A program made the position numbers and the translations under genes. A DNA stretch of 32,000 nucleotides from Candidatus Nanosynbacter lyticus (lineage in GTDB: Bacteria; Patescibacteriota; Saccharimonadia; Saccharimonadales; Saccharimonadaceae): positions 60,001 through 92,000 of the forward strand of contig NZ_CP124549.1 in NCBI RefSeq assembly GCF_030253515.1, in the 5' to 3' direction. The notes under the pieces were generated by a model. It was not told the origin of the DNA. It ran no database searches and worked only from the letters and a program-made list of their open reading frames with translations. Numbering within the stretch: the stretch's first letter is position 1; each line of letters begins with the position of its first letter. Shown in pieces: positions 5,841 through 27,904 of the stretch.

Positions 5841-7574
5841 ATGAATGATGCCAAAGAAGAAGTGCGGGCGCGGCTAAATATCGAGGACGTGATCGGCGAA
5901 TATGTTCAGCTGAAGCGGGCGGGTCGTAATTTGAAGGGACTGAGTCCATTCACTGATGAGCGGACGCCGAGTTTTATGGTCAGTCCGGAAAAGCAGATTT
6001 GGCATGATTTTTCTTCGGGCAAGGGAGGCGATATTTTTACGTTCGTGATGCTGGTGGAGGGGATGGATTTCCGGCAGGCGTTGGAACATTTGGCGCGCAA
6101 GGCAGGCGTGGATTTGAGTTTGTTTTCTCATGGTGATGGGCGCACGGCCAAGCGGCGGGCGCGGGCAGGGGAGGCGCTGAAATTGGCCGCGAATTTCTAT
6201 CAGCAAAATTTGGTGAAAAATTCGGCAGCACGAGAATACGCGGTGAAAAAACGGCGGCTGAATCGGCAGACGATCGGTGATTTTATCATCGGCTATGCGC
6301 CGGATCAGGGCGATGCGCTGACGAAAGCGCTGGAAAAGCGGGGATTTTCGCGCCGGGAACTGGCTGACGCGGGGCTGGTGAATCGGTTTGGCGGCGACTT
6401 GTTTCGGGGGCGGATGATGGTGGTCTTGAGTGATAGCAGCGGCGAGGTGGTTGGCTTTACGGGGCGAATTATTCGTGATGATCCGCGCGCGCCAAAGTAT
6501 CTGAACACGCCGCAGACCCTGCTATTTGATAAATCGCGCCATATTTTTGGGCTGTATCAGGCGAAAGAGGCGATTCGTAGGAGCGACGCGGCGGTGATTG
6601 TCGAGGGGAATCTGGACGTGGTTAGTAGCCACCAAGCTGGCGTCAAAAACGTGGTGGCGACGGCGGGAACGGCGATGACCCTGCAACATCTGAAGGTGCT
6701 GAGCCGGTTGGCGGGGCGGATTCGTGTGGCATTTGATGGCGACCGGGCGGGCGTGAGCGCGACGGAGCGGGCCATCAATTTGGCGCAGGAAATTGGTGTG
6801 GAATTAGAGGTGGTGAGTCTGCCGGACGGCGTGAAAGACCCGGATGAATTGATCCAAAAAGACCCAGCCCTGTGGCAAGCGGCGGTTGAGCGGGCGCAGC
6901 CGGCGGTGGACTGGGTAATCGCTCGGCACGCCGAGATGGAAGATTTGGCGACGGCCGAAGGGAAGCGGCGATTTTCGACAACTGCATTGAGAATCGTGCG
7001 CGGCCTGAAAGATCCGGTGGAGCAAGAGCATTACTTGGCGGTAATTTCTAAAGAAACTGGTGCTAGTCTCGCGGTCTTGCGAGCGAAGCTTGGCGCTGAG
7101 AGATCAACGCCGCCCGCTCAGCTTAAAAAACCAAAGATTGAAAAGGCGACTCCGAGTAAACCTCGTGACGAATTAGCGGACATCATCGTCGGTCTGGCGC
7201 TTAGTCAGCCGTCGACTCGGCGCTGGGTCGGGGCGCTCGAGGCGGCTAGCTTGGACGAGCCAGCTCGAGCAGTGGTGACGGCGCTGCAGGCTGAGCCGCT
7301 ACTTGACATAGAAAAATTACCCCGTCCCTTGCAAAAATTTGAGCAGTATGTGAAAATAGTACAGTTAAAAAGTGAACGCCGCTACATGGACTGGGAGCCG
7401 GAAGCTCTGGACAGTGAAATGGCGCGTTTGGTAAAGCAATTGATACGTAAACACCGCGACACAAAAAAACAACAATTATTAGAAGATTTGCGTGAGGCTG
7501 AGGAGCTCAGCGATGAGGCGCGGGCGCGTATCTTGCGGCAGCAGCTGAACGCACTGATTAAGGAGAATGTGTGA
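5841..7574 (+). CDS. dnaG: DNA primase DnaG (zinc-ribbon ligands all substituted)
   Basis: N-terminal primase zinc-binding-domain homology ([36 protein letters not shown]). TOPRIM region ([32 protein letters not shown]). Its stop TGA 7572-7574 overlaps the rpoD GTG. Confidence 0.93.
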
Positions 7575-8536
7575 ACAACGACCAGCAATACACCCCGACC
7601 AATGACGATCCACTCGAGCCAGATCTGACGGCGGTACATGATGACGAGGAGATAGAAGATCTCGAGGCGTTGAGCGCTGGCCAGTATCTGGATGACATTT
7701 CGGACGATTCGGTGCGGTTGTATCTGCGTGAGATTGGTAAAATCCCGCTGTTAAGCTCGGACGAGGAAATGGAGCTGGCGCGGCGGATCATTGAGGGCGA
7801 TAAGAAGGCCAAGGACAAGATGGCCGAGGCGAACATGCGTTTGGTGGTGTCGATCGCTAAGCGCTATTCGGGCCGTGGGTTGGATTTTCTGGACCTGATT
7901 CAGGAGGGAAATACTGGTCTACTTCGGGCCGTGGAGAAGTTTGATCCGGACAAGGGCTTTAAGTTTTCGACCTACGCGACGTGGTGGATTCGCCAGGCGA
8001 TTACCCGGGCGATCGCTGATCAGGCGCGGACGATTCGCATCCCCGTGCATATGATTGAGACAATTAATAAGCTGGTGCGGACGCAGCGACGGCTCACCCA
8101 GGAACTGAACCGCGAGCCGACGATGGAAGAATTGTCCAAGGAGATGGACATGGAGCCGGAAAAGATTGAATACATCAATAAAATTCGACAAGAGACGTCG
8201 AGTTTGGATGCTGGCATTGGGCGTGATGGTGACGAGGAAGATTCGGTGTTGGGCGATTTTATCGAGGATGAAGATACAATTTCGCCAGAAGAATCAGCGA
8301 CCAATCAGCTGCTGAAAGAAAAGGTCGCCGAGGTGCTGTCGAGTCTGTCTGATCGCGAGCAAAAAATTGTGCGCATGCGGTTTGGGCTGGATAATGGCGG
8401 TAAAAGCCATACGCTCGAGGAAGTCGGTCAGCAATTTGCTGTGACGCGCGAACGTATCCGCCAGATCGAGGCGAAGGCTTTGGCGAAGCTGAGGAAGCAC
8501 AAAGACGCTAAGAAGTTGTATGAGTATTTGAGCTAG
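7571..8536 (+). CDS. rpoD: Primary-type RNA polymerase sigma factor (sigma-70 family)
   Basis: Region 1.2/2 ([65 protein letters not shown]), region 3 and region 4.2 ([24 protein letters not shown]). The GTG start lies 5 nt after SD AAGGAG (7560-7565) and has a 4-bp GTGA overlap with dnaG. Confidence 0.93.
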
Positions 8537-11766: not shown

Positions 11767-11774
11767 GACTAGTG
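11767..11774 (+). repeat. Left copy of the 8-bp direct repeat GACTAGTG bracketing the low-GC insertion
   Basis: An identical octamer recurs at 13623-13630. This copy overlaps the GTG start of the nuclease gene. Confidence 0.4.
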
Positions 11775-13544
11775 TCTGGATTTAAGGCTCGTGAAGCAAC
11801 ATTACAAAACTTATTTGACAGTGGTGACTATGATCAGTTTGTAATTCCGCATTATCAACGCAGCTATGTGTGGGGCCAGGACGAATTGGAGAATTTCTGG
11901 AATGATTTTATTGAACGTAAAGAAGTAGGACAGCTTTATTTACTCGGCTCAATCATTGTCAGTAGGACAAAACAAAAACGTTCTTTTGGGGTTGTGGATG
12001 GTCAACAACGTCTTATTACAAGCTCGGTGTTTATAACAGCCTTGAAAGATGTTTGGAGCGAAAAGTTTGGTCGTGATGAAGAATATTTCTCTTTAGAAAG
12101 ATTTATTAAAAAGAGGGTATTAGGGAGCAATAGTGCCATCTTTAAGATAGATGTTGCGGGCAGCTTGAAGCAATGCTATATTGACATGATTATTTCAGGA
12201 AGTACTAAAAAGGAGTATAAGAACGAAGATCAGAAAAATCTTCATCGTGCATATAATTACTTCAAAGATAAGTTACGTGACTCGTATGATGCAAATCAAG
12301 CTAATGATAATCAACGAAAAAAGTTGCTGCTACAAAAACTTGAGAATCTTCTAGATACTAATCTAGTGCTGGTTATTCTTGATGATGAGGACGATGCTTA
12401 CGAAGTGTTTGAGGGGTTCAATGCTCGTGGCGTAGATCTTTCTATCTCGGACTTGTTTAAAAACCTTTTTCTACAAAAGATAAAAGGAACAGAAGAAGAA
12501 AAAACAAGAGCGCTTGAAGAGTGGGATAATATTATTCAGATAGTTACAGAATTGCGGATCCCAAAGTTTACGATCAATACGTTTATTAGGTATTATTGGA
12601 TAAGAAACCACTCGTTTATAGGCGAGCGTCAGCTTTACAAGAAAATTAAGAAAGAAACGAAGAACTATAGGGAATTGCTATCTGATATGCATCAGATAGC
12701 AGAAGCTTTAAGGGTATTATTTAATGGATCACCGTATGAGATAAGGGATTTTCTTGGGCACCCGGAGGCGAAAGCAGAATATGCAAAATCTATAAGTGAC
12801 TCATTACGTGCTTTGAGGGTTATGAATACTCAGAGCTATATGGTTTGGCTGATGTCTATAGCAGCTAAGCGAAATAAAGAATTTATTAGTCTTAAGATGT
12901 TTGCTCGATCGCTTGGTCAAATAGAAAGATTTTCATTTAGGTATTTTGTAGTTTCAAAATTACCAGCAAATCGTGTTGAAAAAATGTATGCTAAATTTTC
13001 AAATGAATTATTTAAATTGTCCGATATTCGAGATAAACAAAGAATAGCAACTTTATTAGATAAGGGGATCTTGGACAGAATTGAACAAGATAAACTTCTA
13101 CCTCCAAGAGAACAGTTTATTGCTGATTTTGGTTTATTGTGCCTAAAACCTAATAATAATAAAAATCTTGTTCGGTACATTTTAACCCAAATAGAAAATC
13201 AGTTAAGCAGCGGCGAGAAGGGCGTTACTCAAGAAGTTGTTACAATTGAGCATATTATGCCCCAGAGGTTAAACAAGGGGTGGAATATATCGCAAACCGA
13301 TCATAAAAACTGTGTTAATATGCTTGGTAATTTGACAATCCTAAAAGGTGCGTCAAACTCATCTGCAAGCAATAAAGCAATTAACGAAAAGATTCGTCAT
13401 TTTAAAGATTCAGACTTAAAGATGAATGGTGATCTGGTTGATCTAATAAATAAAAAAAGCGATTGGGGTAAAGACGAAATAATAGAAAGACAAAATGCTT
13501 TTGCAGAAGCATCTGATGGTATCTGGTCTGTAGATAAAAGATAA
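11772..13544 (+). CDS. GmrSD-type nuclease (N-terminal DUF262/ParB-like NTPase domain + C-terminal DUF1524 His-Me/HNH nuclease domain); candidate type IV modification-dependent restriction enzyme
   Basis: DUF262 motifs FVIPHYQRSYVWGQDELENFWNDF and VVDGQQRL. DUF1524 motifs VTIEHIMPQ and NMLGNLTILKGASNSSASNK. GTG start lies 9 nt after a strong SD AGGAGG (11757-11762). GC is much lower than in the neighbours. Confidence 0.85.
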   Translation: MSGFKAREATLQNLFDSGDYDQFVIPHYQRSYVWGQDELENFWNDFIERKEVGQLYLLGSIIVSRTKQKRSFGVVDGQQRLITSSVFITALKDVWSEKFGRDEEYFSLERFIKKRVLGSNSAIFKIDVAGSLKQCYIDMIISGSTKKEYKNEDQKNLHRAYNYFKDKLRDSYDANQANDNQRKKLLLQKLENLLDTNLVLVILDDEDDAYEVFEGFNARGVDLSISDLFKNLFLQKIKGTEEEKTRALEEWDNIIQIVTELRIPKFTINTFIRYYWIRNHSFIGERQLYKKIKKETKNYRELLSDMHQIAEALRVLFNGSPYEIRDFLGHPEAKAEYAKSISDSLRALRVMNTQSYMVWLMSIAAKRNKEFISLKMFARSLGQIERFSFRYFVVSKLPANRVEKMYAKFSNELFKLSDIRDKQRIATLLDKGILDRIEQDKLLPPREQFIADFGLLCLKPNNNKNLVRYILTQIENQLSSGEKGVTQEVVTIEHIMPQRLNKGWNISQTDHKNCVNMLGNLTILKGASNSSASNKAINEKIRHFKDSDLKMNGDLVDLINKKSDWGKDEIIERQNAFAEASDGIWSVDKR

Positions 13545-14319: not shown

Positions 14320-15207
14320 ATGCCGGAACTTCCCGAAGTCGAAACAGTTCGCAGCGGTTTGGCGGAGCTACTGCCGGGTCGAGTGGTGGCGCGAGTGGCA
14401 GTGTTTGATTCGCCAAAAAGCTTTCCGAATGCGCCGGCTGATGTTGAACAATTTTTGTATGGTGCGCGCGTGACGGCGGTGCGGCGGCGAGCGAAAGTAC
14501 TGATGATTGATCTGGACACTCGCTACTCGCTGGTGGTGCATTTGAAGATGACGGGGCAGCTTATCTTTCGTGGGCAAGAAAGTTTTGCTGGCGGGCATCC
14601 AAACGATAGTTTGATTGGCAAGCTGCCGGATCGGTCGACGCGGGTGCAGATTGATTTTATCGATGGGTCACGGCTGTTTTTCAACGATCAACGTAAGTTT
14701 GGTTGGGTAAAATTGCTGCCGACTGATGAGGTGAAGAACTTGCCGTTCATGCAAAAAGTAGGGCCGGAACCGCTTGATCCTCAGACACGCGCCGAGGATT
14801 TCATCCAGCGGATTCGTCACCGTCAAAACTCGATGATTAAGCCGGCTTTTCTTGACCAGACGGTGATCGCTGGGGTTGGCAATATTTATGCTGACGAGGC
14901 ATTGTGGGCGGCGCAGATTCATCCACAGACGCGGGTGAAAAACGTTAGCGACCAGCAGCTGAATACATTATTTACTGAGCTACGGCGCATCTTGCAACTC
15001 AGTATTGATCAGGGCGGCTCGACTGATAAAAATTACGTTGATGCCGAGGGTCGAAAAGGAAATTATCTAACATTTGCTCATGTGTTTCGCCGCGAAGGTC
15101 AAGCCTGCCATCGCCACCCCGACCAAGAAATCATCAAGCTAAAAGTCGGCGGTCGCGGTACGCATATTTGTCCAGTGTGCCAGAAGACACCGATATTTGA
15201 CAAATAG
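14320..15207 (+). CDS. mutM: Formamidopyrimidine-DNA glycosylase (Fpg/MutM)
   Basis: N-terminal MPELPEVETV (catalytic Pro2/Glu3), H2TH region (FLDQTVIAGVGNIYADEALW), and a C-terminal zinc finger CHRH...CPVC. ATG lies 9 nt after the upstream stop, so the gene is probably co-transcribed. Confidence 0.92.
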   Translation: MPELPEVETVRSGLAELLPGRVVARVAVFDSPKSFPNAPADVEQFLYGARVTAVRRRAKVLMIDLDTRYSLVVHLKMTGQLIFRGQESFAGGHPNDSLIGKLPDRSTRVQIDFIDGSRLFFNDQRKFGWVKLLPTDEVKNLPFMQKVGPEPLDPQTRAEDFIQRIRHRQNSMIKPAFLDQTVIAGVGNIYADEALWAAQIHPQTRVKNVSDQQLNTLFTELRRILQLSIDQGGSTDKNYVDAEGRKGNYLTFAHVFRREGQACHRHPDQEIIKLKVGGRGTHICPVCQKTPIFDK

Positions 15208-27282: not shown

Positions 27283-27312
27283 AAAACACCTCGCATAGTG
27301 ACGAGGTGTTTT
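27283..27312 (+). terminator. Rho-independent terminator that overlaps the next promoter
   Basis: AAAACACCTCG (27283-27293) pairs with CGAGGTGTTTT (27302-27312) across an 8-nt loop. The T-tail runs directly into TGTATAAT. Confidence 0.8.
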
Positions 27313-27319
27313 GTATAAT
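27312..27319 (+). promoter_or_regulatory. -10 box TGTATAAT, leaderless-type, for the UDG gene
   Basis: A 6-nt spacer (AGAAAT) separates it from ATG 27326. Confidence 0.55.
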
Positions 27320-27325
27320 AGAAAT

Positions 27326-27904
27326 ATGGATGAGGCAGCGCAACTGGAGGTTTTGGCGGCAGAGATTATCGCTGGTGATATTTGTCATGACTTGGCGCTG
27401 CAGGCGACGCAGCTGGTGATGGGTGATGGTCGGGCTGACGCAGACATTGTATTTATCGGTGAAGCGCCAGGAAAAAACGAAGACCTTCAGGGCAAACCAT
27501 TCGTTGGGGCAGCTGGTACATTTCTTGACGAGATGTTAGCCGCAGCCCAGTTACGTCGTCAAGATGTCTATATCACCAATATCGTTAAATATCGGCCGCC
27601 AAACAATCGTGACCCGCTGCCGGAGGAGAAGCGCGCTTTTTGGCCGTATTTGATGCGCCAATTGCAAATTATTCAACCAAAGGTAGTCATCACACTGGGT
27701 CGGCATAGTGGCATGGCATTCATTCCTGACTTGGCGATCTCGCGTGATCATGGCAATCCGCGCTGGGCACAGTTCAACGGTTTGAAGTTCTTGGTAATTC
27801 CGCTGTATCATCCGGCAGCGGCGCTGTATAACGGGGCGTTGCGGCAGACGTTAATTGATGATTTTGTGCGGGCAGCACAACTGGCCGTCCAAGCCAGCGC
27901 TTAG
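27326..27904 (+). CDS. Uracil-DNA glycosylase superfamily protein, family-4-type motifs but lacking the Fe-S cysteines
   Basis: IVFIGEAPGKNEDLQGKPFVGAAGTFLDEML (GEAPG...E...G.PFVG.AG motif A), NIVKYRPP.NR.P and LYHPAAALYN (motif B). There is only one Cys in 192 aa. The ORF-track TTG 27311 lies in the promoter. Confidence 0.85.
   Translation: MDEAAQLEVLAAEIIAGDICHDLALQATQLVMGDGRADADIVFIGEAPGKNEDLQGKPFVGAAGTFLDEMLAAAQLRRQDVYITNIVKYRPPNNRDPLPEEKRAFWPYLMRQLQIIQPKVVITLGRHSGMAFIPDLAISRDHGNPRWAQFNGLKFLVIPLYHPAAALYNGALRQTLIDDFVRAAQLAVQASA

Follow-up and report, generated by a model that had tools for sequence, protein, structure and literature searches.

The zinc-binding domain at the N terminus of the bacterial primase DnaG is a zinc ribbon with four Cys/His ligands, two in each of two knuckles that the metal normally staples together. 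This CHC2 site is treated as a defining and essentially universal feature of bacterial DnaG, the Pfam description of the domain reads "CHC2 zinc finger", and the domain itself takes its name from zinc; reviews call its residues highly conserved and describe the exact role of zinc in template recognition as unresolved (PMC6163395). Here we describe the dnaG gene found in a 32,000-nucleotide (nt) stretch of the Candidatus Nanosynbacter lyticus genome (NCBI RefSeq assembly GCF_030253515.1, contig NZ_CP124549.1, positions 60,001 to 92,000 of the forward strand), referred to below as the window, in whose own numbering its coordinates are given. The product of this gene keeps the ribbon domain with none of the zinc ligands, and this zinc-less ribbon is a lineage-wide state shared across Saccharibacteria, not one private to the window genome.

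Several other protein families contain zinc ribbons or comparable modules that have dispensed with their Cys ligands. Essential zinc-ribbon proteins with and without cysteines are found in the ribosome, where zinc-ribbon proteins (L31, L33, L36, and S14 among them) were reportedly described in Cys-minus forms by Makarova et al. in 2001. These are usually paralogue pairs switched by zinc availability, whereas the Saccharibacteria DnaG is a single orthologue converted lineage-wide. Adenylate-kinase lids, which are small beta-hairpin modules with a metal or a polar state, are held either by Cys4-Zn or by a His-Ser-Asp-Thr hydrogen-bond network, the latter with Asp at the third ligand position and hydroxyls elsewhere, as in the DnaG described here (PMC11526920). 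The kinase is unrelated in family and function, however, and both of its states are widespread and structurally proven, while the DnaG state is known here from its sequences alone. In E. coli Topo I, domains D8 and D9 keep a zinc-ribbon fold that binds single-stranded DNA after losing their cysteines (PMC10969213), but these are degenerate repeats beside working zinc ribbons, whereas the only ribbon of the Saccharibacteria DnaG has lost its ligands. Metazoan Twinkle has lost the zinc cysteines of its domain homologous to the DnaG/T7-primase zinc-binding domain, together with the catalytic residues of its RNA-polymerase domain (PMC5737085); Twinkle structures (7T8B, 8E2L) are distant Foldseek matches of our DnaG model. 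In contrast to Twinkle, whose primase activity is gone, the Saccharibacteria DnaG keeps its catalytic residues and is strongly constrained.

The gene and its parts are listed below by position, strand, and identity, with the supporting evidence in parentheses.

5841..7574, plus strand: dnaG, full-length DNA primase of 577 amino acids (aa) with an ATG start and no Cys (list of open reading frames, ORFs)
5856..6119, plus strand: N-terminal zinc-ribbon-type domain, residues 6-93, without zinc ligands (Pfam PF01807 Zn_ribbon_DnaG, E 1.3e-26)
5943..5954, plus strand: first knuckle, Ser35-Pro-Phe-Thr38 in place of Cys-Pro-Phe-His (alignment to 1D0Q)
5943-5945, plus strand: Ser35 codon AGT, first ligand position
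5952-5954, plus strand: Thr38 codon ACT, second ligand position
6000..6023, plus strand: second knuckle, Trp54-His55-Asp56-Phe57-Ser58-Ser59-Gly60-Lys61 in place of Tyr-His-Cys-Phe-Gly-Cys-x-Glu (alignment to 1D0Q)
6006-6008, plus strand: Asp56 codon GAT, third ligand position
6015-6017, plus strand: Ser59 codon TCG, fourth ligand position
6195..6854, plus strand: RNA-polymerase core (DNAG_N + Toprim) with intact catalytic residues (alignment to E. coli 1EQN/1DD9)
6909..7067, plus strand: DnaB-helicase-binding helical subdomain (Pfam PF10410, E 1.3e-10)
7131..7571, plus strand: C-terminal helicase-interaction domain, fast evolving (helical in the AlphaFold2 model)

The closest structures are the canonical DnaG zinc-binding domains of Geobacillus stearothermophilus (1D0Q) and Aquifex aeolicus (2AU3). 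Residues 5-95 of the window DnaG align gaplessly to residues 10-100 of 1D0Q (phmmer against the PDB, E 1.7e-30), and 2AU3 is a second solved structure to which the ribbon aligns without gaps in the same search. The two proteins share 56% identity in the structural alignment to 1D0Q, and a 32-residue stretch of the ribbon superposes on 32 residues of that structure within the gapless alignment. Also shared with the canonical domains are five predicted strands plus helices, the placement before the DNAG_N/Toprim core and the DnaB-binding C terminus, an Ile-aromatic pair at the template-specificity position (I53-W54), and the dnaG-rpoD operon. The differences are concentrated at the metal site: the Cys-His-Cys-Cys ligands of 1D0Q fall on Ser35, Thr38, Asp56, and Ser59 (C to S, H to T, C to D, C to S), so that none of the four (0/4) is present; the knuckle Gly is Ser and the specificity aromatic is Trp.

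Since there is no Cys anywhere in the 577 residues, no register shift can restore the zinc site. The only His residues among the first 100 are H55, H83, and H97, and both a shifted register and alternative ligands were rejected in view of the gapless alignment, the absence of Cys, and the fact that His55 is not invariant. An initial annotation of the window, made from the sequence alone, had assigned Ser, Thr, Asp, and Ser to the ligand positions of a retained ribbon scaffold and had seen no possible tetrahedral zinc site. The alignment to 1D0Q and the PF01807 match bear this out; the interval 5943-6032 that it marked corresponds exactly to residues 35-64, and the sequence string it quoted is also exact.

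Outside the ribbon the protein is clearly a DnaG. Its best protein matches share 95-98% identity with it, several of them titled 'DNA primase [Candidatus Saccharibacteria bacterium oral taxon 488]', and it scores 364.4 bits against the NCBIfam equivalog model TIGR01391 dnaG (cutoff 283.6) over residues 5-404. The Pfam domains PF01807, PF08275, PF13155/PF13662, and PF10410 occur in that order, with DNAG_N at residues 119-242, Toprim_2 at 252-338, and DnaB_bind at 357-409, which is the three-domain DnaG architecture. Aligned to the E. coli core (1EQN/1DD9), the window protein keeps KYLN (K219, Y220, N222) and FRGR (R189, R191), as well as the acidic motifs EGNLD (E255, D259), DGD (D299, D301), and DPD (D333, D335). 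Apart from R189, which is nearly invariant, each of these residues is the same throughout the 123 aligned sequences introduced below. Judged by these motifs, the Saccharibacteria DnaG looks like a fully competent enzyme, and the window gene is probably the sole, housekeeping replicative primase of a Saccharibacterium.

The distribution of the zinc-less state was followed through close relatives, protein clusters, and species genomes. Aligning related DnaG N-termini, as the initial annotation had proposed, gives S-T-D-S in all 120 of the 120 close relatives (83-98% identity). An exhaustive search covered 1.84 billion cluster representatives (50%-identity clusters), and among the best 150 matches, 33 have S-x-D-[S/A/T], two more have S-T-C-S, and the rest are canonical. 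A profile of the zinc-less domain was also scanned against one genome per GTDB species, using two patterns, one of which also fits canonical domains; at least 598 stretches matched, and the species-genome counts given here are those of the best 80 loci. By ligand state these loci divide into STDS (37), SSDS (19), SGDA (13), SGDS (6), SNDS (2), SADS (2), and SADT (1), and neither Cys nor His occurs at any of the four ligand positions in these 80. Nearly all are titled Saccharibacteria, Saccharimonadales, Nanosynbacter, Nanosyncoccus, Nanogingivalaceae, Nanoperiomorbaceae, or Saccharimonas, with a few given only as 'uncultured bacterium' or 'bacterium', and they come from the mouth, rumen, gut, soil, groundwater, and reactors.

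Four other DnaG representatives (P0199, P0251, P0157, and P0175) resembled partial-loss forms 'CHCS/CHCA/CHCG'. This reading was rejected on inspection of the raw sequences, whose second knuckle is longer by one inserted residue, C-F-G-[S/A/G]-C (CX3C instead of CX2C), and which keep all four ligands.

The residues that replace the ligands are themselves conserved. We aligned 123 sequences, the window DnaG and 122 homologues, of which 112 are zinc-less and 11 CHCC. Ser35, Trp54, Asp56, and Ser58 are invariant in all 112 zinc-less sequences (112/112), and Ser35 and Asp56 are also invariant in all of the best 80 species-genome loci and in the 120 close relatives. Position 59 in the zinc-less set is Ser, rarely Ala or Thr, and position 38 is free to change between T, S, N, G, A, K, and Q. 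Co-varying with ligand loss in this alignment are N48S, Y54W, G58S, and E61K. The Ser35 codon is AGY in some lineages and TCN in others with the residue unchanged, and one genome with an identical domain sequence has synonymous differences at the ligand-position codons.

Regional rates within DnaG are given below as pairwise identity among zinc-less proteins and, where available, nonsynonymous divergence (dN) from four close genomes.

Zinc-ribbon domain: pairwise identity 0.80 (ribbon alone 0.84), dN 0.009-0.014
Catalytic core: pairwise identity 0.67-0.70, dN 0.062-0.065
DnaB-binding subdomain: pairwise identity 0.45
C-terminal domain: pairwise identity 0.41, dN 0.41-0.43

Within DnaG, the zinc-ribbon domain evolves most slowly and experiences the strongest purifying selection. 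Synonymous divergence (dS) is saturated (> 1.4), and the dN/dS of ~0.006 for the ribbon domain is indicative only. The initial annotation had read the loss of the ligands as relaxation; the ligands are indeed gone, but the conserved replacement residues, with Ser35 and Asp56 invariant, point to a selected substitute instead.

Experimental data on a related organism bear on the importance of the gene. The complete genome of Southlakia epibionticum ML1, a cultivated Saccharibacterium from the oral G1 clade to which the window genome also belongs, has the same gene order (SEML1_0058-0072), and its 'DNA primase', SEML1_0062, was essential at all three time points of transposon sequencing, with 0, 0, and 1 insertions (PMC10633639 and its Tables S1/S2). 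SEML1_0062 is also the only row of the Southlakia ML1 tables in which 'primase' appears, in the sequence-based and structure-based annotations alike (PMC10633639). A second, canonical dnaG elsewhere in the genome would have spoken against the initial annotation; none is annotated in Southlakia ML1, the related genome for which these tables show a single copy.

We consider it probable that the ribbon of this DnaG is zinc-free and keeps its fold, template recognition, and priming, with the knuckles held by a polar network centered on Asp56. The two knuckles would be joined, in place of zinc, by buried hydrogen bonds and a salt bridge. Ser35, Ser58/Ser59, and knuckle backbone amides would donate hydrogen bonds to Asp56, which sits at the third ligand position; Lys61, which is Glu in canonical relatives, would neutralize the charge of Asp56, and Trp54, which is Tyr in canonical relatives, would add packing. 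The ribbon domain would then read the initiation trinucleotide and pass the template to the unchanged Toprim active site. This model is the most economical because there is an invariant carboxylate at position 56, hydroxyls at 35, 58, and usually 59, and a Glu-to-Lys change at 61. The pattern of the hydrogen-bonded lids, in which Asp occupies one ligand position and hydroxyl or imidazole residues the others and the arrangement is conserved within the metal-free clade, is found here too, with Asp56 and Ser35 invariant and Ser at 58/59. From these patterns we infer the absence of metal, the hydrogen-bond geometry, and the retained primase and template-recognition activity alike.

The position of the ribbon relative to the template offers an explanation for its conservation. 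I53-W54 of the window DnaG align with Ile58/Phe59 of the Geobacillus domain, the template-specificity pair that sets the initiation trinucleotide. This pair adjoins the former zinc site, so the geometry of the ribbon should be functionally important, which would account for the constraint on the domain. The invariant Trp54 may shift initiation specificity.

The predicted structure is consistent with a kept zinc-ribbon fold, though it is not independent evidence for one. An AlphaFold2 (AF2) model of the window DnaG, built on the homologue alignment, has a mean predicted local distance difference test (pLDDT) score of 88, with 85-94 over the ribbon domain, where strands are placed at 24-27, 30-34, 43-48, 53-56, and 61-63. 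Foldseek returns 2AU3 first (E 3.5e-26), followed by the RNA-polymerase-domain cores 5GUJ, 3B39, and 1DD9. The match of the model to 1D0Q_A has a template-modeling (TM) score of 0.89 and a root-mean-square deviation of 1.9 Å over 98 columns, from a predictor trained on zinc-bound homologues.

Three points weigh against the polar-network model or limit its support. The S-G-D-A form of the Nanosyncoccus type leaves only Ser35, Asp56, and Ser58 for the network, and a four-residue picture is therefore too simple. The training of AF2 on zinc-bound ribbons, together with the 11 CHCC rows in the input alignment, means that a confidently modeled ribbon is no independent proof of a stable apo fold. Lastly, the zinc-less state of SEML1_0062, the essential primase, is extrapolated from all surveyed G1 relatives.

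Other explanations of the substituted site were weighed against the same data. An oxygen-rich Ser/Thr/Asp/Ser pocket might bind a hard cation (Mg2+, Ca2+, Na+, or K+), which would staple the knuckles in place of zinc. All four window substitutes are oxygen donors and Asp56 is invariant, and some monovalent or divalent cation sites do consist of one carboxylate plus hydroxyls and backbone carbonyls. We nevertheless regard such a site as very unlikely, given that G, A, K, Q, and N all occur freely at position 38 and that position 59 is Ala in 13 of the 80 species-genome loci; these S-G-D-A genomes retain just one hydroxyl and one carboxylate at the ligand positions. The co-varying E61K also puts a positive charge beside Asp56, an arrangement more in keeping with a salt bridge than with a bound cation.

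Slightly less probable still is weak zinc binding that persists by means of water and residues outside the canonical set, such as His55, Asp56, and Glu40. Zinc sites made of Asp, His, and Glu exist in enzymes, and the 123-sequence alignment shows His55 and Glu40 to be conserved, but canonical CHCC primases, in which neither residue is a ligand, conserve them just as well. His55 is moreover replaced by Lys or Tyr in several zinc-less representatives (WKDFSS, WYDFSS), and a third or fourth conserved donor specific to the zinc-less clade was not seen in the alignment.

We give a little less credence again to the domain being a relic, left after a Twinkle-like loss of primase function with another enzyme doing the priming. 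Metazoan Twinkle did lose the zinc cysteines of the homologous domain (PMC5737085), and the T7 primase requires its zinc motif for template-directed synthesis (PMC6163395). However, Twinkle lost its catalytic residues as well (PMC5737085), whereas those of Saccharibacteria are all invariant or nearly so. The Southlakia orthologue is essential, in a genome where no other primase is annotated by sequence or structure (PMC10633639). As the most conserved and slowest-evolving part of DnaG (dN ~0.01), the ribbon does not behave as a relic, which would rank the regions the opposite way. Finally, an artefact of sequencing or assembly, a wrong frame, or a register error is refuted by the intact ORF, the gapless alignment to two solved structures, and the recurrence of the same residues under different synonymous codons in independent assemblies from many projects.

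Gene order ties the zinc-less gene to its canonical counterparts. In the window the order is RNase T-like, YjbR, a small minus-strand ORF, dnaG, rpoD, AAA kinase, polA, fpg, holA, and S20, with the sigma-factor gene overlapping dnaG:

7571..8536, plus strand: rpoD (Pfam sigma-70 regions 1.2-4), with a 4-nt overlap (GTGA) at the dnaG stop

Most of the best 80 related genomes, as well as the CHCC relatives, have rpoD as the next gene downstream of dnaG, and the order RNaseT-YjbR-small(-)ORF-dnaG-rpoD-AAA-polA-fpg is common to six CHCC lineages (L081, L082, L088-L091). Because the CHCC lineages share this synteny, the zinc-less dnaG is the positional orthologue of the canonical primase and not a paralogue.

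We placed the canonical relatives by shared synteny and neighbor-joining (NJ) trees. In an NJ tree of RpoD plus the DnaG core from 73 synteny-defined loci, a group of six CHCC loci and one S-T-C-S locus stands apart from 65 S-x-D-x Saccharibacteria with 76% bootstrap support, and the six CHCC loci form a group by themselves in 6% of replicates. One transition is inferred on RpoD alone and two on RpoD plus the DnaG core, where the S-T-C-S locus nests among the CHCC loci. An NJ tree of the DnaG catalytic domain from 148 representatives gives at least two transitions in 200 of 200 bootstraps, with deep branches poorly resolved. Two proteins with the S-T-C-S state were located on contigs:

L085 8001-9743: S-T-C-S DnaG P0132, single Cys at the third position, Saccharibacteria-type synteny
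L087 1908-3656: S-T-C-S DnaG P0255, single Cys at the third position, rpoD not downstream

P0132 has Ser35, Thr38, Trp54, Ser58, Ser59, and Lys61 and keeps Cys56, and is either a misplaced intermediate or a case of parallel loss. The L087 protein may belong to an unrelated lineage with an independent loss. An S-K-D-S protein (P0151, at L083) diverges further than the CHCC loci do in RpoD, PolA, and DnaG, and its placement in the tree is uncertain. On the simplest reading, the change ran from canonical to zinc-less with Cys56 lost last.

A broader, speculative account, which we think unlikely as a whole, would have the zinc site removed adaptively and more than once. The nested S-T-C-S and the uncertainly placed S-K-D-S forms would have reached Ser/x/(Cys then Asp)/Ser in parallel with the main clade, and the Tyr-to-Trp change would bring a different preference in initiation. 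Economy of zinc or thiols, or oxidant resistance of the replisome, would have driven this in an epibiotic lineage, with the Cys-poor family-4 uracil-DNA glycosylase (UDG) discussed below as a second symptom.

Several features of the surrounding loci were recorded along the way. In the CHCC and S-T-C-S relatives L081, L082, L085, L088, L089, and L091, a bacterial eRF1-like gene (baeRF family) lies between YjbR and dnaG, with no counterpart in the window. Genes for biosynthesis are also present on contigs of these types of relatives (ispDF, relA, and in L090 putative purF/purB-type genes), a sign that their genomes may be less reduced. In the CHCC relative L082 (13453-17041), two further sigma-70-like genes come after dnaG-rpoD, and one of them (445 aa) joins sigma regions 1.2 and 2 to a WhiB domain. 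Throughout the window (1-32000), every 2-kb bin has a positive GC skew (0.07-0.26) and almost all genes lie on the plus strand; it is leading-strand DNA with a strong strand bias. A restriction gene in the window was also noted:

11772-13544, plus strand: GmrSD-type restriction endonuclease (GmrSD_N + GmrSD_C), between polA and fpg

The GC content of this stretch is 0.37 vs. ~0.50, and the published Southlakia gene table lists no GmrSD gene between polA and fpg. The window gene looks like an inserted defense island.

Two further genes in the window had been combined with DnaG into a claim of lineage-wide relaxation of metal-cofactor dependence:

14320-15207, plus strand: Fpg, zinc finger at residues 263-287, C-x2-H-x17-C-x2-C, one Cys swapped for His
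27311-27904, plus strand: family-4 UDG (TIGR00758, 186 bits vs. a cutoff of 125; GEAPG motif), Cys25 its only Cys

That claim was overstated, as Fpg keeps four ligands and the RNase J encoded in the window keeps the HxHxDH metal motif (as HGHLDH). The Fpg finger is indeed of the CHCC type (C263-x2-H266-x17-C284-x2-C287) and has four competent ligands; the E. coli pattern is C-x2-C-x16-C-x2-C. In family-4 UDGs four Cys hold a 4Fe-4S cluster. The window enzyme, which had been called cysteine-less, has one Cys (Cys25) and so lacks the usual Fe-S ligands; of these proteins it alone fits the same trend as DnaG. Cys makes up 0.55% of the residues of the window proteins, which we judge low but not absent. 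At most, these observations point to a tendency for structural or cluster sites with Cys ligands to be lost, and not to a loss of metal dependence in general.

We found no description of a DnaG zinc-binding domain without its ligands in full-text literature searches. The replacement of a zinc site by a polar network is already known in other families, but a zinc-less DnaG seems to be new. In a species-rich lineage that includes cultivable human oral strains, the ribbon is more conserved than the active site and has no ligand left. An essential replication enzyme here very probably works without a metal thought to be fixed in the DnaG family. Annotation, metalloproteome prediction, and zinc-ejecting inhibitor strategies that take the site for granted should be applied with caution to this group. 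W-H-D-F-S-S may serve as a simple sequence marker of the lineage, and the protein itself could supply a cysteine-free, oxidation-insensitive primase for biochemistry. Saccharibacteria provide a natural experiment that parts "the fold" from "the metal" in primase, so that the old question of the role of zinc becomes directly testable: if the recombinant protein primes normally without zinc, the metal in DnaG would be purely structural.

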